UHGV virus genome: UHGV-0299546
Direction: 5' to 3' (one strand)
From: a virus
Length of the DNA: 35,363 nt
Made by a program: the position numbers and the translations under genes. Of the stretch, positions 2,883 to 18,586 are shown one piece after another (position 1 is the stretch's first letter; the number at the start of each line of letters is the position of its first letter). The notes below the pieces were generated by a model, which worked only from the letters and a program-made list of their open reading frames with translations, was not told the DNA's origin and did not search any database.

Positions 2883-3125
2883 ATGGACAAAGAATATAAA
2901 GCTCTCGTCAATAAAGCACTTGAGCGTTTTCATTTTCGCTTAAACACATCAGGGCTTCACGCCGAACACGCAGCCCATGATTCATTAGCAAGGGCAATCA
3001 GAAGCCTTTATGACGTGGCCTTTTACGCTGACGATTTGGATGCAATTAACGAACTTTCCGAACTCGTCTGCGCTGCAGAATGCGGGGATCGCATTGAACC
3101 ATATAAACTGGGGAATATCGCATGA
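2883..3125 (+). CDS. Hypothetical early-region protein
   Basis: 80 aa from ATG 2883 (MDKEYKALVNK...), in frame with ORF-track entry 2739..3125. Confidence 0.5.
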   Translation: MDKEYKALVNKALERFHFRLNTSGLHAEHAAHDSLARAIRSLYDVAFYADDLDAINELSELVCAAECGDRIEPYKLGNIA

Positions 3126-3235
3126 GTATATTTATGTCATGGATTGTTCTGATTATTTCGGTGGCCTGCGCAATCGGGATTATGCGAATTATTCATTCAG
3201 TGAAAAAGATTGAGCGTTTTTTCTCTGACGAATAA
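3122..3235 (+). CDS. Possible 37-aa hydrophobic small membrane protein
   Basis: Hand-translated MSIFMSWIVLIISVACAIGIMRIIHSVKKIERFFSDE; ATG overlaps the upstream stop (ATGA); below the ORF-track size cutoff. Confidence 0.3.
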   Translation: MSIFMSWIVLIISVACAIGIMRIIHSVKKIERFFSDE

Positions 3236-6065: not shown

Positions 6066-8831
6066 ATGACGGCAGAGTACATCAGGGACTGGCAACAACC
6101 GCGCCACGCAGTGGGGCGTGAAGGAACGGGGATCCCCGCTCCTGAATCCGCGCTTTCCTCCTGGCTGGATGCCTACCGGGCAGAGAACGAGCGCCGCCAG
6201 GAAATGGCTGATGCGGCGTTCTCCGCCACGCCGCTGGGCAACCTGATTAATAAAAGCCTGGACGCACAGGAAAAACAGGACAAAACCATCACACTGGCAG
6301 GAGACGCCAGAAAACAGGCACGCGGCGCGGTGGATGAAGCCATGGCCTCGCTGCGCCTGCTGCCGTCCTATCTGCGCGATCCGCTTATTCGCCACCTCTC
6401 CTTCCTTCGCAAAAAACAGGAAGCCGATCGCCGGAAAGGCAAAAAGAGCTGGCAGGCGGAACGCTATGCACGCGGAACCCTGCGCAAAATATTCGAACGT
6501 CTGGATCGCACTGACGGACGCTGGCTGACACCGGGTTATCGCTCCCTTGCCGGACGCGAACGCCTGGACGATTTGCTTTACCTGCCGCAGCTCAACAAAC
6601 ACCAGATACAGACGCTGGCCACCATGACGGCGGCGATGTTCAGCAGCACCTTCGAAAAGCTCTGCGATGGCTTTGGCGCGACTGATGGCGAGCTGACCAT
6701 GGATGTAACACTGAAGGCGTATCAGATGCTGGCCCGCATGGCGTTACACCTGCACGCTATGCCTCCACATTATGACGCTCTGACAACAGACAAAGACCGG
6801 AGGAACGAACCGGACACGGAGCTGCTGCCGGGCGCAATCCTTCGCCTGACCTGTGCGGAATGGTGGAAACGCAAACTGTGGCTGTTACGTTGCGAGTGGA
6901 GAGAAGAACAACTCCGCGCCGCCTGTCTGGTTTCCAGAAAAACATCGCCCTATCTGAGTCAGGACGCATTAAGTGAATTTCGCGCACAGCGCGAGAAAAC
7001 ACGCGATTTCCTGAAAAGTTTCATGCTGGAAAATGAAGACGGGTTCACGATTGATCTCGAGACGGTGTATTACGCGGGAGTAAGTAACCCGGTCCACCGT
7101 AAGGCAGAAATGATGGCCACCATGAAAGGGCTGGAACTTCTGGCCGAAGCCCGTGGCGACAAAGCGGTGTTTCTGACTGTCACCTGCCCGTCAAAATACC
7201 ACGCAACAACGGAGAACGGTCATCCGAACCCCAAATGGAACGGGGCCACCATGCGCGACTCCAGCGATTACCTGGTTAACACGTTTTTTGCGGCGGTCCG
7301 CAAAAAACTGAACCGCGACGGTCTGCGCTGGTATGGCATCCGCACGGTGGAGCCTCACCATGACGGCACCGTGCACTGGCATATGATGGTCTTTGCACAC
7401 CCGGACGAGATTGAAACCATCGTGTCCCACGTCTGCGATATTGCCATTCAGGAAGACCGCCACGAGCTGGGCGATGACATAACTCCGCGTTTTAAGGCGG
7501 AGTACGTAGACGGCTCAAAAGGCACGCCAACCAGCTACATCGCCACCTACATCGGAAAGAACCTGGACAGCCGCGCCGTGGATGGCATCGACCCGAAAAC
7601 GGGCAAGCCACGCATTGACCACGAAACAGGTAAATCAATGGCCGAGAGCGTGGAGCGCGCCATCGGCTGGGCGCGCCTTCACCGGGTCCGCCAGTTCCAG
7701 TTCTTTGGCATTCCCTCCCGTCAGGTGTGGCGTGAACTCCGCCGCCTTGCCAGCCAGATGGCACGCAACCCGGAAGGCCCGCAACGGCTGAAGGATGACG
7801 CAATGGATGCGGTTCTTGCTGCCGCTGATGCCGGGTGTTTTGCCACCTACATTGAAAAACAGGGTGGCGTACTTGTTCCGCGCAAGGACTACCTGATTCG
7901 CACCGCCTACGACCTCGCAGATGAGCTGAACGATTACGGCGAACAAAGCGTACAGATTTACGGGATCTGGTCGCCACTCATCGGGGAATCCTCCCGTGTG
8001 TGCACGCATCCGGATAACTGGAAGCTGGTAAGACGCAAACCGGAAGCGGAAGACAGCGCCCGCGAAAATGGTTTTGACCTTCAGGGCGGCCCTGCCGCCC
8101 CTTGGACTCGTGGCAATAACTGTCCCCGTGTACAGGAAACGGACAACAACGGGACAGAACAGCAGGAAGAACGGCCAGCACTGTGGCCGCAGCTTCCTGA
8201 CGGCGTTGATGTGGATGAATGGATGCGCTCACTGAAACGGCACGAACGCCGGGCGCTGATGCGTTCGCTTCGTGACAAACAGGCAAAAAACAGCAGTGAT
8301 GAAATGCAGAGCTGGACACAGAGCCGCAAACAGCAGCGGCCTTTGCCTGATAACCACGAATTACTCGCTAAAGAATGGCGGGAATCTGCCGAATCTCTCG
8401 GCCTGCATATCGGTGAACAGCAGATGCAGCACCTGTTACGAGGCGGCAGTCTGTACGTTGACGGCAGCATCATTGCACCGCAGGGATTTGAAATTGTACG
8501 CAAACCAGATACCCGACCGGACAGCCGAATCACGCAGCTCTGGCAGCGCCTGAGCCGTAATCACGGCGTAAACAGCACGGAAATCCGCCATAACCCGGTT
8601 TCCAGCTATCTGAAACAGCTCGAGGCATCAGACCCTGAAGCCGCTGCACGCCTGGCATCCACAATTCAGCAGGACCAGAACACCATGAAAACTCCCGTTA
8701 CCGTGCTTTCTGACATGCTGCGCGCCATCCGTGACGCAGAGCACGCACAGAGAATCAATGAAACCACTGAACGCGCACGTCACAAGGCGGGTCTGTTGCA
8801 GGACAAAGGCAATAGCGAGAAGAAAAAATAA
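6066..8831 (+). CDS. A: Replication initiation protein gpA (rolling-circle HUH endonuclease)
   Basis: 921 aa; HUH-type motif TVHWHMMVF and paired catalytic tyrosines in YIATYIGK, typical of the P2 A family. Confidence 0.9.
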   Translation: MTAEYIRDWQQPRHAVGREGTGIPAPESALSSWLDAYRAENERRQEMADAAFSATPLGNLINKSLDAQEKQDKTITLAGDARKQARGAVDEAMASLRLLPSYLRDPLIRHLSFLRKKQEADRRKGKKSWQAERYARGTLRKIFERLDRTDGRWLTPGYRSLAGRERLDDLLYLPQLNKHQIQTLATMTAAMFSSTFEKLCDGFGATDGELTMDVTLKAYQMLARMALHLHAMPPHYDALTTDKDRRNEPDTELLPGAILRLTCAEWWKRKLWLLRCEWREEQLRAACLVSRKTSPYLSQDALSEFRAQREKTRDFLKSFMLENEDGFTIDLETVYYAGVSNPVHRKAEMMATMKGLELLAEARGDKAVFLTVTCPSKYHATTENGHPNPKWNGATMRDSSDYLVNTFFAAVRKKLNRDGLRWYGIRTVEPHHDGTVHWHMMVFAHPDEIETIVSHVCDIAIQEDRHELGDDITPRFKAEYVDGSKGTPTSYIATYIGKNLDSRAVDGIDPKTGKPRIDHETGKSMAESVERAIGWARLHRVRQFQFFGIPSRQVWRELRRLASQMARNPEGPQRLKDDAMDAVLAAADAGCFATYIEKQGGVLVPRKDYLIRTAYDLADELNDYGEQSVQIYGIWSPLIGESSRVCTHPDNWKLVRRKPEAEDSARENGFDLQGGPAAPWTRGNNCPRVQETDNNGTEQQEERPALWPQLPDGVDVDEWMRSLKRHERRALMRSLRDKQAKNSSDEMQSWTQSRKQQRPLPDNHELLAKEWRESAESLGLHIGEQQMQHLLRGGSLYVDGSIIAPQGFEIVRKPDTRPDSRITQLWQRLSRNHGVNSTEIRHNPVSSYLKQLEASDPEAAARLASTIQQDQNTMKTPVTVLSDMLRAIRDAEHAQRINETTERARHKAGLLQDKGNSEKKK

Positions 8832-9011: not shown

Positions 9012-10133
9012 ATGGGCGACTTAGGTGGTATTCAGTCAGATTTAGCCCAACTAGTTAGACTGGTAATAACTGAACAGTATGATGACGTTCGGTTATATGT
9101 CGCTCGCTTGGTGCGTAAATATCGGGAAACTATGCCTGCTCTATCCGAGCAGCTTGATCTTTATCTACGAAATAAACCGCAAAAGCCTGCACAAAGCCTG
9201 CGTAAGGTTACCGCACCAAAACAAGCGCTGCCTCAAACCATGCCTGTGGACGAGGAGTCAAGGCTTACCTTGCTTAAAGCACCAAATGAAAAGATTGTGA
9301 GCAAACCTCTACTGTCCAGTCAGATAGAAGACTCACTGGATCAAATTATTCTTGAGCGGAAGCACATCGATCGCCTCAAGACTCTCGGCTTACAACCAAC
9401 ACGCTCTGCCATTTTTGTTGGCCCTCCGGGTGTAGGTAAAACACTTACGGCAAGCTGGTTGGCTCAGAAATTAGGGGTTCCTTTTTACGTTCTTGATTTA
9501 ACGGCAGTAATGAGCAGCTATCTGGGCAAAAGCGGAAATAACCTTCGGGCAGCTCTAGATTTTGCGAAGAAAGGGCCGTGCGTTCTTCTGTTAGATGAAA
9601 TTGATTCAATCGCCAAAAAGAGAAGTGATGATTCTGATGTTGGAGAATTAAAAAGACTTGTTACCGTGATACTCCAGGAGGTTGACGAATGGCCGTCTTC
9701 TAGTTTGCTACTTGCTGCAACTAACTTCGCTGAGTTGATTGATCCAGCACTATGGAGACGTTTTGATTTAGTGCTCAATTTTGAGAAGCCAGATAGCGAA
9801 AGTATTAAAGAAGCAATTAAACGCTTTTCAGGTCCCGACTACGCGATTTTTGCACGTTGGATAGATCTACTGGCTATTATGTTCAAAAATGAATCTTTTA
9901 GTAATATTGAGCGTTCTATCAACAAATTCCGACGTTCGGTCGCTTTAGGTATTTCCTCAGATGAAGAGTTGATTGGGTCGTTCATTAAAGATGGTTTATC
10001 AGAATTAGACAGGAATGAACGTAAAGAAATTGCAGTTACTCTAAAAAGAAATTCTAAATTATCCCAGCATGCCATATCAGACTTAACCGGAGTCAGTAGG
10101 GATACAATTAGAAAATACAGTCAAAAAATGTAA
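9012..10133 (+). CDS. AAA+ ATPase with C-terminal HTH-like tail (IetA-like?); first gene of hotspot cargo
   Basis: Walker A GPPGVGKT (nt 9420-9443), Walker B VLLLDEID, sensor AATN; AT-rich relative to flanking phage genes; AAGAGG RBS. Confidence 0.85.
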   Translation: MGDLGGIQSDLAQLVRLVITEQYDDVRLYVARLVRKYRETMPALSEQLDLYLRNKPQKPAQSLRKVTAPKQALPQTMPVDEESRLTLLKAPNEKIVSKPLLSSQIEDSLDQIILERKHIDRLKTLGLQPTRSAIFVGPPGVGKTLTASWLAQKLGVPFYVLDLTAVMSSYLGKSGNNLRAALDFAKKGPCVLLLDEIDSIAKKRSDDSDVGELKRLVTVILQEVDEWPSSSLLLAATNFAELIDPALWRRFDLVLNFEKPDSESIKEAIKRFSGPDYAIFARWIDLLAIMFKNESFSNIERSINKFRRSVALGISSDEELIGSFIKDGLSELDRNERKEIAVTLKRNSKLSQHAISDLTGVSRDTIRKYSQKM

Positions 10134-10156
10134 TACAGCATAGATAAGGAGTATGT

Positions 10157-12382
10157 ATGGCGAAAACTAATTTTCTGATTGGACGCGGCGAATTATTAAC
10201 CAGCGATATTCCTGGTCCTAAAAGAGTGCCCGGAAAAGCTGAGGTTTATTCTCTTTACGAATCGAAACAACGTTTATTGCCGCAAATTGCATCTACTATA
10301 GAAAATTTTGATGATTTACCCAGTCAGGCATGTCCTTATGATTATGCTGTGGCTAAGTTGACGTTGAATCCGAGCTATATTGCACGCTCTTTTTTTCCTG
10401 CAAAAATGCTTAAGTCTACCGGGTTAACGTCTATTGGCAGCAGGACGGTAAAAATTACGCCTCAAAGCTGGAAGCGAAAAGTTACTGTGTCAGAAGTAAC
10501 TACGACACAAATGTTTGTTGCTGGTAAAAGAGAATCCTTCAAAGAGTTACCTCATTGGGTGTCAGGACTCAAAGAGTTTTCTGACGAAGCGATTGATTTT
10601 GCACGCATAGAACGGTTCGATGCCTATTTACCCGAAGAGCGTATTATTACCATTGGTGAGCAGGATTCTTCGTATTTTGAGGTTGGTGTTCATTTACTGC
10701 CAGATAATGAACAAGACTTGGTTCAGCAACAATTTGTTCAGTTTGCATCAAATTTGAACATCAAAGTACATACTTCATTAGCTTTTACCGCTGGTACATT
10801 ATGGTTCGTGCCAATCCAGGCCGATAGAATTACTATTAGTAAGCTTGCGAAATTTACATTTGTACGAGTCATAAGACCGGTTCCAAGATTGCGTGGGATT
10901 AGACCAATACAAAGGAACTACGGTCCTTTAGCTCAGTGTAAATTGCCTGCTGAGGGCCCCGTATCTTCAGAAATAAAAGTTGCGATTCTTGATGGTGGTT
11001 TACCATCAGAGCACGCTATATCGCCATGGTTAAAATCCTATAGAGTTTTGGACGATCATGCAGAGGATGATCCAGACGGTTTAGAGCATGGTTTAGCTGT
11101 GTCTTCAGCCTTTTTATTTGGACCAATAAGTAATAAATCGGAAGCGAAAAGACCATACTCTTATATTGATAACTTAAGAGTTTTGGACAACAAGACCTGC
11201 CAAGAAGATCCGCTGGAACTATATCGAACTTTGGGCTTTATTGAAGAGGTATTGTTGTCTCGCCAGTATCAGTTTATCAATCTAAGTTTAGGTCCAGACC
11301 TACCAATTGAAGATACGGAAGTTCATGCATGGACTTCCGTTATTGATGATTTGTTAAGTGATGGTGAAACATTAATGACTGTTGCTGTTGGCAACAATGG
11401 AGAAATGGATCGCAAGTCTGGTAATGCAAGAATTCAAGTACCAGCCGATTGCGTTAATGCTCTTGCTGTTGGTGCTTGTGATACAGTTAATGATACGGAA
11501 TGGAAACGAGCACCATATAGCGCCATTGGGCCAGGCAGAAGTCCTGGCGTGATGAAACCGGATTTAGTTGCGTTTGGTGGTGACACAGACGAGTACTTTC
11601 ATGTTTTAGGTAAAGGTAAGAAGCCTGTAATCATACCCCAGCTAGGAACAAGCTTTGCCTCTCCTTACGCCTTACGAGCAGCTGTTGGTGTTCGGGCAAT
11701 TTTAGGGAACGATTTGAGCCTACTAGCAATCAAAGCTTTGTTAATTCATGCGTCAAAACAGCTTGATCATCCTTGTACAGAAGTTGGCTGGGGAAAACTT
11801 CCTGAAGACTTGAACGACATTATAGTCAGCCCTGATGGTGTTGCCCGTATCGTCTACCAAGGTGAATTGAAACCAGGAAAATACTTACGCGCTCCTCTTC
11901 CAATACCTGAAGGTGGCTTGAAAGGTAGAATAAACTTAGCGGCAACTTTCTGTTATGCAACAACCACTGATCCACAAGACCCAGCTTCCTATACAAAAGC
12001 TGGTTTGGAAGTGACATTCCGGCCAAATGATTCAAAAATCAAAGACGGAAAACAAAATGCTGAAACCAAGGGATTCTTTGAACTGGCCAAATATTCAACT
12101 GAAAGTGAGCGACGTTCTGACATGGGCAAATGGGAGACCGTCTTACATAATTCGAAGAACATGCTAGGTTCAACTCTAAAAAATCCTGTATTTGACATTC
12201 ATTATAACGCTCGTGAGGCCGGTGCAAGCATAGCCAGCCATAAGGCAGAAAAAATCAAGTATGCTCTTATAATTACCATTAAGGCATCAAAGCACCAAGA
12301 CCTGTATAACGAAATTTTACGTACTTATAATCAGGTGCTCGTGCCAATTCAACCGCAAACATCAATTCCTATTCGTTCGTAA
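10157..12382 (+). CDS. Subtilisin-like serine protease, peptidase S8 family, with ~265-aa N-terminal domain of unknown function (IetS-like?)
   Basis: Catalytic triad motifs in D-H-S order: VAILD279GG (nt 10991-10993), EH311GLAVSS, GTS499FASP (nt 11651-11653); oxyanion VGNNGE; AAGGAG RBS; 23 bp after the ATPase stop. Confidence 0.88.
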   Translation: MAKTNFLIGRGELLTSDIPGPKRVPGKAEVYSLYESKQRLLPQIASTIENFDDLPSQACPYDYAVAKLTLNPSYIARSFFPAKMLKSTGLTSIGSRTVKITPQSWKRKVTVSEVTTTQMFVAGKRESFKELPHWVSGLKEFSDEAIDFARIERFDAYLPEERIITIGEQDSSYFEVGVHLLPDNEQDLVQQQFVQFASNLNIKVHTSLAFTAGTLWFVPIQADRITISKLAKFTFVRVIRPVPRLRGIRPIQRNYGPLAQCKLPAEGPVSSEIKVAILDGGLPSEHAISPWLKSYRVLDDHAEDDPDGLEHGLAVSSAFLFGPISNKSEAKRPYSYIDNLRVLDNKTCQEDPLELYRTLGFIEEVLLSRQYQFINLSLGPDLPIEDTEVHAWTSVIDDLLSDGETLMTVAVGNNGEMDRKSGNARIQVPADCVNALAVGACDTVNDTEWKRAPYSAIGPGRSPGVMKPDLVAFGGDTDEYFHVLGKGKKPVIIPQLGTSFASPYALRAAVGVRAILGNDLSLLAIKALLIHASKQLDHPCTEVGWGKLPEDLNDIIVSPDGVARIVYQGELKPGKYLRAPLPIPEGGLKGRINLAATFCYATTTDPQDPASYTKAGLEVTFRPNDSKIKDGKQNAETKGFFELAKYSTESERRSDMGKWETVLHNSKNMLGSTLKNPVFDIHYNAREAGASIASHKAEKIKYALIITIKASKHQDLYNEILRTYNQVLVPIQPQTSIPIRS

Positions 12383-12395
12383 TCCTTCAAGACAT

Positions 12396-12426
12396 AATGC
12401 CCCTCAATTTGAGGGGCATTTCTTTG
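12396..12426 (+). terminator. Intrinsic terminator ending the cargo operon
   Basis: Stem TGCCCCTCA/TGAGGGGCA (12398-12406 / 12410-12418) followed by TTTCTTT. Confidence 0.65.
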
Positions 12427-12450
12427 CACAAAAGTGCACAAATTTGCACA
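12425..12450. repeat. Three direct TGCACA(A) repeats at 10-bp periodicity
   Basis: TGCACA at 12425, 12435 and 12445; lies between the cargo and the expected cos site. Confidence 0.5.
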
Positions 12451-12824
12451 ATTTTTTTGAACGACTTTTTGCCCTTCCGGCCCGCATGGCGGCTGGATCC
12501 GTCAAGGATCCGTGCGTGCACAAAAAAACGCGCTTTTTCTGCGCGCAGGTGACGGGGGAACAGCCCGCGTTTCAGGGGGTAAATAGCGTTCCCTTAACGA
12601 TGTCGCAGCGACACGACAGAATGGCCGTATTTCTCACGCTGAGCGTGAAAAATACGTGAGGGATTCTGGTTTGATGGGGTGAAAGGTAAGGCCGTCAAAA
12701 TCGCACTGAGGCGGCGAGAACATGCAGTCAGCGCAGTGGGATTGCGTAAGAATCTGACCGTCGATGATGGCAATAAGCAGGAAAGCGTCGTGAAATTATC
12801 TGACTGATACAGGAGCTGGAGAGT

Positions 12825-12849
12825 CGGGGCATAAATTTTTTATGCCCCG
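12825..12849. other. Perfect 11-bp-stem hairpin downstream of the portal gene
   Basis: CGGGGCATAAA-TTT-TTTATGCCCCG; no U-tract follows on either strand, so function is unclear. Confidence 0.4.
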
Positions 12850-12875
12850 GCGAAGCAGCAGACAAGCGAAGCGCG

Positions 12876-13922
12876 TCAGGATGTGGGCTGGGTATCTAAC
12901 AGTGCGTAAGGGTTAAAGCGGATCACCTCTTCGCCAAGCCAGTCATTGATGTGCTTCATGGCCTCCATGACGGGCATCAGCTCGTTAATTGCGTAAACCC
13001 GCGCGGCCTTCTCCACATCACCAAACGCACTTTTTTCGCCCGGCATCGCCCCCATCAGTTGCGGCGGAACGCGGTGCGCAGCCAGCACATCATCACGGGA
13101 TGCCGCCTTAACATTCATGAACTCATCCTTTGCGGTGATCTGCTGGAACGGCAAAATTTGCACCCCCTCTTTGCCCCCGTTGGGCGCATGAATGAGCACG
13201 TTTTTAAACGCACCACCACCACGTGCCCCCTGTAGCGTTTCTTTCAGGGAGTCCATGCTTTCGCGGTTTACCTGCGCTGCACCGATGTAGATGATGCACC
13301 CGGCGTGGGATCCGTTGTCGTAGTACAGTTTTCTGAACATGTCCGCCGAATGAGAAAGGCTGGCCGAGAGTAATGCGCCAAGATATTCCGGCATGCCGTA
13401 GATTTCCTGGTTAATATCCGGATTCATCAGGTGGCACACTTTGCCAGGACGAAACTGGAACGCGTCCTTGCCATCCTGCACATACCACCATGATTCAAGA
13501 TCGCTTCCGCGTCGCATGTATTTCGCCAGTGCGTGCCGTAATTTAAGCGGTTCGCCGAGCATATTGCTCCGAAGCTCAAGGAATGCGTTACCGAACACAA
13601 ACCAGTCCAGCGCCAGCGCCGAGAAATCCTGCCGGGAAAGCAGCGGGTGCGGGATGTAGCAACCGAGTAATACATTGCGCTTAAAGTAAAGCGCAGACTG
13701 ATGCCAGGACGTTTGCCGGGCAGCTCTTGCCAGACCGTACCAGTCCACCGGGGTTTCATACCACCGCCCGTTATCAGCACAGTACATATTGTCCAGCAGA
13801 TCATGCCCGGTCAGGCGATAAGGACCATCAAATGTGAATGCACTGAGCGATGATTCTTTCCTGAGCGCATCAGCGAGATCAATGCGTGAACTCATGCGCA
13901 CTTTTTTATTTTTTCTGCTCAT
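12876..13922 (-). CDS. Q: Portal protein gpQ
   Basis: 348 aa, P2 Q-like by length and position; start overlaps the P stop (ATGA). Confidence 0.93.
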   Translation of the reverse strand: MSRKNKKVRMSSRIDLADALRKESSLSAFTFDGPYRLTGHDLLDNMYCADNGRWYETPVDWYGLARAARQTSWHQSALYFKRNVLLGCYIPHPLLSRQDFSALALDWFVFGNAFLELRSNMLGEPLKLRHALAKYMRRGSDLESWWYVQDGKDAFQFRPGKVCHLMNPDINQEIYGMPEYLGALLSASLSHSADMFRKLYYDNGSHAGCIIYIGAAQVNRESMDSLKETLQGARGGGAFKNVLIHAPNGGKEGVQILPFQQITAKDEFMNVKAASRDDVLAAHRVPPQLMGAMPGEKSAFGDVEKAARVYAINELMPVMEAMKHINDWLGEEVIRFNPYALLDTQPTS

Positions 13923-15673
13923 CAGAACTCCATAACCGTGAAACGCTCGTTTTCTCCTTCGCCGCCAATCGGTTCGTTAATGACAGCAAGCATGGTTGCC
14001 CACGCAAGGTCGCCGTGGCTGATCCCCCTCGCGCGGTCCGTTTCGTAAGTGATAAAGCCGCCCGGTGTTTTCACCTTACGCACGGCGTTAAAGGCCGCGA
14101 CCAGCTCGCGTTCGGCGCGATCGTATTCCCACCGCCCGGCACGCATTATTTGCAGCATTTTCAGTACCAGCGACCGTTTTGATGACAGCGTGAAGGTGTA
14201 CGGAATAGCAGCAGGGAAAAACCGTTTCACTATCTGATAAACAGCCTCCCCGTTCCCGCCCGTCACATCAATGCCGATGTGTTCCACGTTGTAGCGATAC
14301 GTGAACTCTTCAATGACTCTGGCCTGTTCTTCAAACTCCAGCCCCTGAACGCGTCGCGTCTCCACCGTTCGAAAACGGCCACCAGGAACAGCCGGAGGAA
14401 CCACCACGGACACAGCGCCGCTGTCGCCGTTGCCACTGCTGCCGTTTGCGTCATACCCAATCCATACCGGACGATTCCCCATCGGGCGGGGAGCAAAAGG
14501 TTTCCAGTCTTTCCAGTCGTCGTATCCGTCAACACCGCAGCCAATCAGGATATTCAGGTTAAATGCCGATTCCCCTTCGCGAACAAACTCACACATATAG
14601 AGATTGAGGAACTCGTCTTCGGTATTTTCATCACGAATTTCGTCGATATCGGTGTGTTTCCAGCCGTGATTAACCACATCTTCCAGCGTGACAATTTGCC
14701 GCCACGTCCGGTCAGGGCAGATAAGCCCGTTATGCAGCGTTTTCCAGTCCACAGAAAAACGCTGGCGTTTATGCGAGGCCTTTTTCTCGTTCCAGCGGTC
14801 GCCGTTCCAGTAGGCGTATGCCTCGTGCGTTTCGGTGGATGGCGTGGAGAAGTAGGTGCGCCGCAGTCCGCTGAGGGTTGCCATAGCGCCAGCCACCTTG
14901 CGCAGTTCAGCAAAGCGACTGACCCAGAAAAATTCATCAAAATAAAAATTGCCCGTATAGGACTGTGCCGACGCAGCAGAAGTGCCGAGAAAATGCAGCT
15001 CTGCGCCGTTGGAGAGGATGATTTTATCGCCCCCTTTCAGCTCCACATCAACTTCAGCCGCGGCCTTCTGAATAATGCTTTTAAACTGGAACGCCTGACG
15101 ACGCGACGCAGACAAAAAAATCTGGTTACGCTGGTAAGGTTGCGCCACATCGTCACGCAGCGCCATCAGCAGTGCTTCCTGTGCAAAATACCAGGTCGCC
15201 CCAATCTGTCGGGATTTCAGGATCATCCTGTTACGTATCCCGGCTTCCCTGCAAAGGGTCAGGGAGTCAAACCAGCCCCGCTGATGCCACTCCAGCCTGC
15301 TGATGATTTTTTCCCGCAGTGCGGCAATCTGTTCCTGCGTGAAATGATTTTTGAGTTTTTTCGCCCGGCCTTTCTTTCCTGCGGCCATCACATCCGGCTG
15401 GCCATCATGCAGCTTTTTAAGCTGCCGGGTCAGCAGGTCTATTTCCTTAAAGTCACCGCCTGTTTTATTCTGTTTTTCAGTAAGCTGGATGAGGCGCGCA
15501 TCGATGGACTGCGTGACACGCTGCACGGGTGGCGTTTCATCCCACTGGTCACGTTTTTTCCACGCATAAATCGTGTTCGGGTTTATTCCCATCAGACGTG
15601 ATATTTCTGCGGGCGGATAACCCTGCCAGTAAAGTTGCCGCGCACGCTGGCGCACAAAAGCGTCCTGAATCAT
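13922..15673 (-). CDS. P: Terminase large subunit gpP
   Basis: 583 aa; P2 P-like by length and position; GGGGGAG RBS. Confidence 0.93.
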   Translation of the reverse strand: MIQDAFVRQRARQLYWQGYPPAEISRLMGINPNTIYAWKKRDQWDETPPVQRVTQSIDARLIQLTEKQNKTGGDFKEIDLLTRQLKKLHDGQPDVMAAGKKGRAKKLKNHFTQEQIAALREKIISRLEWHQRGWFDSLTLCREAGIRNRMILKSRQIGATWYFAQEALLMALRDDVAQPYQRNQIFLSASRRQAFQFKSIIQKAAAEVDVELKGGDKIILSNGAELHFLGTSAASAQSYTGNFYFDEFFWVSRFAELRKVAGAMATLSGLRRTYFSTPSTETHEAYAYWNGDRWNEKKASHKRQRFSVDWKTLHNGLICPDRTWRQIVTLEDVVNHGWKHTDIDEIRDENTEDEFLNLYMCEFVREGESAFNLNILIGCGVDGYDDWKDWKPFAPRPMGNRPVWIGYDANGSSGNGDSGAVSVVVPPAVPGGRFRTVETRRVQGLEFEEQARVIEEFTYRYNVEHIGIDVTGGNGEAVYQIVKRFFPAAIPYTFTLSSKRSLVLKMLQIMRAGRWEYDRAERELVAAFNAVRKVKTPGGFITYETDRARGISHGDLAWATMLAVINEPIGGEGENERFTVMEF

Positions 15674-17785: not shown

Positions 17786-18586
17786 ATGATTACTCCTGCA
17801 CAGCAACACTGGCAGAACGTGATGGCACAGCGCGCAGGCCGGGCGAATGAAGGCGTGGACCACGCCGCGCGTACCGCGCATGAAGAGGTGCTGTATCGTC
17901 TGCGTCTGGCACAGGCCCGGCTTAAGGGCGTACAGGCCAGAAGCGCCAAAGCCGCCATCAAAAAAGAGTTGTTGCCGGACTTTTCCGGCTGGATTGAGGG
18001 AACACTGGAGGCTGACGGCGGGCAGCAGGATGAAGTGATTGCCACGCTGATGGTGTGGGCGATTGACTGCGGCGATCTTCCGCTGGCACTGCGTATTGGT
18101 GCATATGTGGTCCGTCACAACCTCATCATGCCGGATAACTTTGGACGTACTGCTGCCACGGTACTGACCGAAGAAATCTGCAACCCGGTACTGACGCAGG
18201 CCGGGACGGATGCCGACGCGGATTTGTCCGCCTTTATCGAACCACTGGATACCCTCCGGGAGATTGTCACCGACCAGGACATGCCGGACGAAGTGCGCGC
18301 CAAATTATGCAAGGCGTGCGCCTTTGCCCGCCGTGGCCTGACCGATGCGGACAGCATGGCCTCATCACTGAAGCTGCTGCGCGAAGCGATGCACCTGAAC
18401 CCGAACGCAGGTGTGAAACGCGAGATTGCAACCCTTTCCCGCGCTCTGAAAAAAGCCGATTCCGCAGCCGCACCAGAAGATGCCAGCACACCGCAGGCGC
18501 AGGACGAAAGCAGCAAAAGTAAAAAGACAACGCGGAAGCCTGCAACACGAAAAACCACCGCGACGCAGAAGGCGAAGCGCGGTTAA
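17786..18586 (+). CDS. M: Terminase small subunit gpM
   Basis: 266 aa; N-terminus and internal blocks (KKELLP, PDEVRAKL, AGVKKEI) resemble P2 M. Confidence 0.88.
   Translation: MITPAQQHWQNVMAQRAGRANEGVDHAARTAHEEVLYRLRLAQARLKGVQARSAKAAIKKELLPDFSGWIEGTLEADGGQQDEVIATLMVWAIDCGDLPLALRIGAYVVRHNLIMPDNFGRTAATVLTEEICNPVLTQAGTDADADLSAFIEPLDTLREIVTDQDMPDEVRAKLCKACAFARRGLTDADSMASSLKLLREAMHLNPNAGVKREIATLSRALKKADSAAAPEDASTPQAQDESSKSKKTTRKPATRKTTATQKAKRG

Follow-up and report, generated by a model that had tools for sequence, protein, structure and literature searches.

A predicted P2-family cos site with a conserved four-site repeat layout in a P88-like prophage

The interval at 12425-12566 of a 35,363-nucleotide stretch of viral DNA (UHGV virus genome UHGV-0299546; the whole stretch is referred to here as the window) is, judging from its sequence, very probably the cos (cohesive-end, DNA-packaging) site of a P88-like P2-family prophage, and the four short repeats that it carries (R1-R4) would be read by the terminase. 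The element is of a known kind, a P2-family cos in P88-like form. The most interesting by-product of the analysis is its layout of four sites with a 72-bp spacer. The original prediction had expected a P2-type cos between the cargo terminator and the portal gene; this is borne out by a four-site TGCAY layout that is found at matching distances from the cohesive end in P2, 186, P4 and the wider family.

Genomic setting of the interval

The window is a P88-like (Xuanwuvirus) P2-family prophage, and its gene order is that of P2: GPA, cargo, the interval, portal, large terminase, scaffold, capsid and small terminase. The features considered here are as follows.

6066-8831: GPA replication protein (gene A)
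9012-10133: IetA, an AAA ATPase; cargo adjoining cos
10157-12382: IetS, an S8 peptidase; cargo adjoining cos
12396-12425, plus strand: intrinsic terminator of the IetA/IetS operon (stem, loop and T-rich tail); end of the variable cargo
12425-12451: R1, R2 and R3, three TGCACAA repeats with 10-bp phasing (-123, -113 and -103 relative to the predicted cohesive end)
12452-12516: R3-R4 spacer of conserved length, with a T7 tract, an imperfect GC-rich dyad at about 12476-12496 and two copies of GGATCCGT
12517-12547: R4 (TGCACAA, at -31), A-run and, directly next to the cut site, a short GC dyad (about 12528-12546)
12548-12566, plus strand: predicted cosN, GGTGACGGGGGAACAGCCC, with the nick predicted between 12547 and 12548 (GCA^GG)
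12567-12824: left-end leader from cosN to the portal terminator, conserved only within P88-like phages
12825-12849, minus strand: hairpin, 27 nt past the portal stop codon, without a U-tract
12876-13922, minus strand: portal, gpQ homologue (Pfam Phage_portal)
13922-15673, minus strand: large terminase, gpP homologue (Pfam Terminase_6N, Terminase_6C, Terminase_5, HTH_23)
17786-18586, plus strand: small terminase subunit, gpM homologue (Pfam Phage_term_smal, E = 5.7e-37)

The interval has the IetA/IetS cargo on one side and the portal gene on the other, which is the position of cos in P2 and 186, whose records annotate cos directly upstream of the portal terminator. It is thus flanked by the replication/cargo region and by the 3' end of the portal gene, within a P2 gene order and together with P2-type terminase genes. 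IetA and IetS (9012-12382) form an anti-phage defence pair, placed here in the P2 cos-proximal hotspot that is known from P2-like phages (PMC9122126). The residues 6-63 of the gpP homologue make up an N-terminal helix-turn-helix (Terminase_5, HTH_23), so that the large terminase, besides the small subunit, may be a reader of cos DNA.

The interval shares 92-98% identity with Escherichia phage P88 and other Xuanwuvirus records, and it was found in 1142 of 5426 complete E. coli genomes. The cargo terminator that had been predicted to the left of the repeats is real: a 12-nt perfect inverted repeat (stem 12396-12420) is followed by TTCTTT, and its RNA fold (dG -18.1) stands out from shuffles with a z of -4.96. 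Homology to other P88-like prophages ends just right of this terminator. In P88-like phages and E. coli genomes, one sampled genome excepted, the left limit of homology to the interval falls at window positions 12418-12425, that is, at R1, and the cargo to the left of R1 varies from phage to phage. Because homology to the interval starts there, R1 appears as a sharp outer wall of the variable hotspot. The genome NZ_CP173557.1 is the only sampled one that has the cargo terminator in common with the window.

On the portal side, the 11-bp-stem hairpin reported at 12825-12849 was found with its arms at 12825-12835 and 12839-12849. As RNA, it folds with a dG of -21 kcal/mol (z -4.7) on the minus strand and of -29 (z -6.4) on the plus strand. 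Its position is that of the annotated terminators tQ of P2 and tW of 186, and it is probably the terminator of the portal-terminase operon. The G-rich tract noted near 12711 is likewise present, as GGCGGCGAGAACATGCAG at 12710, within a 42-aa ORF. Neither this tract nor the hairpin, both of which had been listed among the motifs of the expected cos region, is part of cos; the tract was rejected as a cos candidate on the grounds that the leader is conserved only among P88-like phages and that a P2-like context is missing around it. The leader at 12567-12824, in which homology to Enterobacter phage phiT5282H stops at about 12569, is without a recognisable cos role. Two further observations concern this leader. 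A 15-bp inverted repeat at 12626-12656 (CGTATTTCTCACGCT / AGCGTGAAAAATACG; dG -15, z -3.2) lies ~80-110 bp inside the predicted left end. The 42-aa ORF (12679-12807), located between cos and the portal terminator, is annotated as 'hypothetical protein' in P88 and P88_4B11 and gave no Pfam match; the P2 leader, which is shorter, is without a counterpart of it.

The repeat array and its likely reader

An exact search returned the three TGCACA repeats of the original prediction at 12425, 12435 and 12445, with the exact 10-bp spacing claimed for them, as well as a fourth copy at 12517 that the prediction lacked. The pattern TGCAC-N5-TGCAC-N5-TGCAC, with one mismatch at most, occurs once in the 35-kb window against 0.02 occurrences expected from shuffles; the triple repeat is therefore more than chance. 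As for the two GGATCCGT repeats described in the spacer, the second stands at 12506-12513 as claimed, while the first occupies 12495-12502, one base away from its original coordinate, so the copies are 11 bp apart, not 10. GGATCnG at -42, which belongs to the second copy, is conserved in the consensus of the GGTGA-type sequences described below, whereas the first copy is not; near the position of the second copy, related phages carry GGTCTGA...CGGATCGG, and 186-like phages carry GGCGCGGATCC.

Three records were used as anchors for the comparison across the family: those of P2 and 186, which annotate the 19-nt cohesive end, and that of P4, which begins with the P2 19-mer. In all three, TGCAT stands at -124/-123, -111, -101 and -29 from the cohesive end, and an A-run and then a short GC dyad come after the copy at -29. 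In the window, anchored on 12548, TGCAC stands at -123, -113, -103 and -31, and the same order of TGCAY, A-run and short GC dyad is found directly upstream of the end, at 12517-12546. The layout recurs in P88, P88_4B11, phiT5282H, the Klebsiella phages 3LV2017 and Kp4845-1, an Arsenophonus element, PSP3 and Ralstonia phage RSA1; in PSP3 and RSA1, TGCAT is at -120/-129, -111/-110, -101/-100 and -29. phiCTX has a TGCAG/CGCAG variant at -109, -99 and -28.

Two IMG/VR scans with the cosN sequence as query then gave 100 distinct GGTGA-type and 103 distinct P2-type upstream sequences, and the layout was seen in about 190 distinct sequences. Since the sets were retrieved with cosN, the conservation of cosN within them is circular; the repeats lie outside the query. 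TGCAY, with a background of 0.0022 per position, was present in the GGTGA-type set (n=100) at -123 in 55, at -113 in 60, at -103 in 67 and at -31 in 79 sequences, and in the P2-type set (n=103) at -124/-121/-120 in 69, at -111/-110 in 76, at -101/-100 in 85 and at -29 in 99. Counted at the modal position alone, R1-R3 are found in 55-67% of the 100 GGTGA-type and 43-71% of the 103 P2-type sequences, and some P2-type phages have only one or two of the three. The distance from R2 to R3 is always 10 bp in these sets, and that from R3 to R4 is 72 bp in 69 of 74 GGTGA-type and 70 of 87 P2-type sequences; the identity of the R3-R4 spacer between sequences is 0.54 in the GGTGA type and 0.37 in the P2 type. 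This four-site layout, conserved at fixed distances from the cohesive end in P2, 186, P4 and the family, upholds the suggestion that the phased repeats are part of the packaging signal.

We propose a model in which the terminase, made up of the gpP and gpM homologues, would cut at GCA^GGTGACGGGGGAACAGCCC (12548-12566) and leave a 5' overhang that is rich in G, as is the 19-nt one of P2 and 186. The site is composite and consists of R1-R3, with three TGCAC motifs on one helix face (12425-12451), a spacer that is fixed in length (72 bp from R3 to R4) and free in sequence, and R4 with its A-run and small GC dyad (12517-12546), followed by the cut site. R1-R4 would be recognised by the terminase, via gpM or the N-terminal HTH of gpP, and a bend or wrap of the DNA across the fixed-length spacer would bring the protein on R1-R3 to the cut site, in much the way that cosB acts for cosN in lambda. 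The small subunit gpM (Phage_term_smal) and the gpP N-terminal HTH are thus the candidate readers of the repeats, and R1-R3 are proposed to be an accessory terminase-recognition array that also marks the outer edge of the conserved cos region. What the analysis shows are the motifs, the family-wide conservation of their positions and the homology to the cohesive ends given in the P2 and 186 records; we infer the bending and the identity of the binding protein, as well as the exact nick positions and the overhang length.

The repeats might instead be binding sites for a DNA-bending protein of the host (IHF, Fis or the like), not for the terminase, and have a purely architectural role at cos, a reading that we consider unlikely. 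The 10-bp phasing, the flanking A/T tracts and the fixed-length, free-sequence spacer would suit such a role, and lambda cosB, which contains an IHF site, would be a precedent. However, the IHF consensus WATCAANNNNTTR, allowing at most one mismatch, had no match in 12383-12875, which tells against the IHF sites that had been entertained for the phased repeats, and TGCAY is unlike this consensus as well as, by inspection, unlike that of Fis. Moreover, the motif differs between phage lineages, being TGCAC in P88-like phages, TGCAT in P2/186 and TGCAG in phiCTX. Because it shifts between lineages that infect similar hosts, a phage-encoded reader fits better than a conserved host protein.

That the repeats serve the adjoining cargo hotspot as promoter, operator or recombination boundary, and have nothing to do with packaging, seems to us very improbable. 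R1 does coincide with the edge of the variable region, and in P2 the old-tin transcript starts on the minus strand ~25 bp left of R1, so that the repeats there overlap the promoter region. Nevertheless, a scan of both strands found no sigma-70-like promoter in 12300-12950; in the window, P88 and 186 the upstream genes point to cos and a terminator stands just before R1; and the distance from the repeats to cosN is constant regardless of the cargo. In P4, furthermore, the repeats come after the conserved psu gene and the variable hotspot is on the opposite side of cos (PMC9122126). Since the P4 hotspot is across cos from the repeats, these are not a hotspot feature.

A side observation concerns the R4/A-run/GC-dyad segment (12517-12546), which on the minus strand resembles an intrinsic terminator, with a hairpin and a T-run directed from cos into the cargo; its RNA fold is not better than that of shuffles (z -1.1). 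This terminator-like layout is common to P2, 186 and RSA1 with differing stem sequences, and the changes may be compensatory.

Placement of the cohesive end

The original prediction had left the 19-nt cohesive end unplaced. The G-rich tract that it noted near 12548 is present as GGTGACGGGGGAACAG at 12548, and as this tract occupies the position of the P2 cohesive end, the end can be placed by homology. The alignment with the P2 and 186 cos sequences, which had been suggested as a check, showed that the repeats are conserved and that their distances to the cohesive end match. We therefore predict cosN at about 12548-12566, give or take a few bases, with an overhang that may measure 16-19 nt. 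The predicted end GGTGACGGGGGAACAGCCC, read in the P2 orientation, is identical to the P2 cohesive end at 13 of 19 positions, a score also within reach of several unrelated places in the window, which scored 13-15/19 in a scan with the P2 and 186 19-mers. Since chance matches elsewhere in the window reach this score, it is the context, and not the 19-mer alone, that supports the placement: a G-rich end related to GGCGAGGCGGGGAAAGCAC and in the same orientation is specific here by its surroundings rather than by its score.

Several features of this context point to 12548. The junction GCGCGCA^GG(C/T)GA at this position matches 186 and Klebsiella phage 3LV2017, and the 24-nt block GCGCAGGTGACGGGGGAACAGCCC (12543-12566) is identical in phiT5282H, a phage whose flanks are down to 73% identity. 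Compared with P2, the GGTGA type has 2 nt fewer in front of the CGGGG core, so the top-strand nick could be at 12546 instead of 12548. Counted from CGGGG, all four repeats are at P2 distances, with R4 36 nt away in both cos types. The right flank is weak: the window has CCCGCG around +17..+22 (consensus AGCCCnCG), as against TGCGCGC in the P2-type core.

The plaque-forming phage P88_4B11 (LR595891 79-100) has GGTGACGGGGGGACAG followed by GTTTCAGG and is without the CCCGCG of the window and P88. The right flank of cosN accordingly tolerates a 6-nt deletion, and, as P88_4B11 has no CCCGCG right after ...ACAG, the right-hand (bottom-strand) nick is less certain than the left-hand one. An attempt to derive it from the GCGCGCA/TGCGCGC flank symmetry of P2, 186 and 3LV2017 was abandoned, the right flank being too weak here and absent in P88_4B11.

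The phage records, viral contigs and papers searched contained no mapped virion end for a GGTGA-type cos, and none of the retrieved phage records and viral contigs starts at the equivalent of 12548. Contig starts lack power as evidence here, since even the known cos is not the starting point of any contig in the P2-type sample. A GGTGA-type cos sequence in a phage context was not found in the searched literature.

We give hardly any credence to the idea that P88-like phages have their real cohesive end at another place, such as 12470 (TGCCCTTCC...), with the GGTGACGGGGG tract then a relic. The linear record LR595891 (P88_4B11) does begin at the counterpart of 12470, which lies 78 bp to the left of the predicted cosN, and P2-like records of the same study begin at or near the P2 cos, but nt 1 of LR595891 was chosen 'relative to reference genomes' after assembler-repeat trimming and its ends were not mapped (PMC6969025). 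The sister records vary in their starts, which fall on P2 position 1, on P2 position 20 and 21 bp ahead of P2 position 1. Subgroups show poor conservation around 12470, while the 12543-12566 block is identical in phiT5282H, and the spacing of R1-R4 from 12548 agrees with that seen from the annotated ends in P2, 186 and P4. Its start, being the authors' choice, is a convention and was dropped as a mapped end (PMC6969025). The record offsets of 78 and 21 bp resemble the k-mer sizes of assemblers, a likeness on which we place no weight.

Klebsiella phage 3LV2017 has at 3008-3150 a hybrid cos, in which window-type TGCAC repeats stand at the same distance from a nearly P2-identical end (GGCGAGGCGGGGG / GGCGAGGCGGGGGAGCAAG). 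As this phage combines both, repeat type and cut-site type are separable, which would help to match each of them to a terminase subunit.

Satellites, significance and comparison with known systems

P4 and P2 have only cos in common, and P4-like satellites need the terminase of the helper (PMC9122126). In P4, all four sites are at the P2 positions with unrelated sequence in between. Among 120 P2-type IMG/VR loci, 20 lacked a portal gene at up to 2.5 kb from cos and can be presumed to be P4-like satellites; all four sites are kept in 16 of these 20. The sequences of these portal-less loci diverge directly after +26 (TGCGCGC). No clear satellite with a GGTGA-type cos was seen among the 120 loci of the GGTGA type, the portal-less L053 being a possible exception.

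A '55-bp core' of the P2-family cos has been described by Ziermann & Calendar 1990, as cited in PMC5694545 and PMC3931495. By our alignment, this core corresponds to -29..+26, with R4 inside and R1-R3 outside, and R4 with the A-run and the dyad is, as aligned, the counterpart of the right half of the P2/P4 core (TGCATTAAAACCG, dyad). Because they lie outside the core, R1-R3 may be dispensable and may only raise packaging efficiency. The papers searched contained no description of the four-site array, and the citing reviews and genome papers mention the 55-bp core only; Ziermann & Calendar 1990 or the phiCTX genome paper may already note the array.

As a more tentative proposal, which we regard as possible rather than probable, the four-site TGCAY array (R1-R3 in phase, R4 72 bp further on and 36 bp from CGGGG) could be the terminase-recognition element ('cosB') of the entire P2 family, copied by satellites and forming the outer wall of the hotspot. 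If so, the array would be the only sequence besides the 55-bp core that P4-like satellites must copy for packaging.

The placement of cos fixes the genome ends of the virion for a prophage type that is present in about one fifth of complete E. coli genomes, together with the right-hand edge of a defence-gene hotspot, occupied here by IetAS. The four-site layout and its fixed-length spacer offer a cheaply testable model of how P2-type terminases recognise DNA and of how P4-like satellites mimic the packaging signal, and they are usable in the design of P2/P4-based cosmids and transducing particles.

The closest known systems are the cos sites of P2, 186 and P4, with 19-nt 5' cohesive ends (GGCGAGGCGGGGAAAGCAC / GGCGTGGCGGGGAAAGCAT). 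The window shares with them the genomic position, from the cargo region to the portal terminator, and the orientation; a G-rich end that starts with GG after GCA/GCG; a common order of R4 (TGCAY and A-run), GC dyad and cosN; three phased TGCAY motifs ~100-124 bp upstream, with R3 72 bp from R4; and the terminase families (Phage_term_smal, Terminase_5/6N/6C). It differs in that its end is identical at only 13 of 19 positions and 2 nt shorter before CGGGG, and in that its repeat is TGCAC rather than TGCAT, with an R1-R2 spacing of 10 bp instead of 12-13. In addition, the GCGCGC right flank of P2 is weakly present in the window, and the leader to the portal measures ~310 bp as compared with ~165 bp in P2. 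The window ends are predicted by homology, whereas those of P2 and 186 are annotated in their records.

Pseudomonas phage phiCTX also has a P2-family cos, and its record annotates a 'region3' with R3-R6 repeats around cosR/cosL. By our own count, TGCAG/CGCAG stands at -109, -99 and -28 from the annotated 21-nt end, although the R repeats of its authors may be other elements. It differs from the window in its GCAG motif and in that only two upstream copies are evident.

The cos of lambda is organised as cosQ-cosN-cosB, with R3-I1-R2-R1 bound by gpNu1 and IHF. It resembles the window cos in combining a nicking site with an array of short repeats that would position the terminase, and in that geometry outweighs spacer sequence. 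The two have no sequence or protein homology, and the window repeats are on the side of cosN that faces away from the terminase genes. An IHF consensus such as lies between the repeats in lambda cosB was not found in 12383-12875 of the window with at most one mismatch, and binding of the window repeats by terminase is inferred. P2-type terminase, unlike that of lambda, takes circular monomers as its substrate (PMC5557969).
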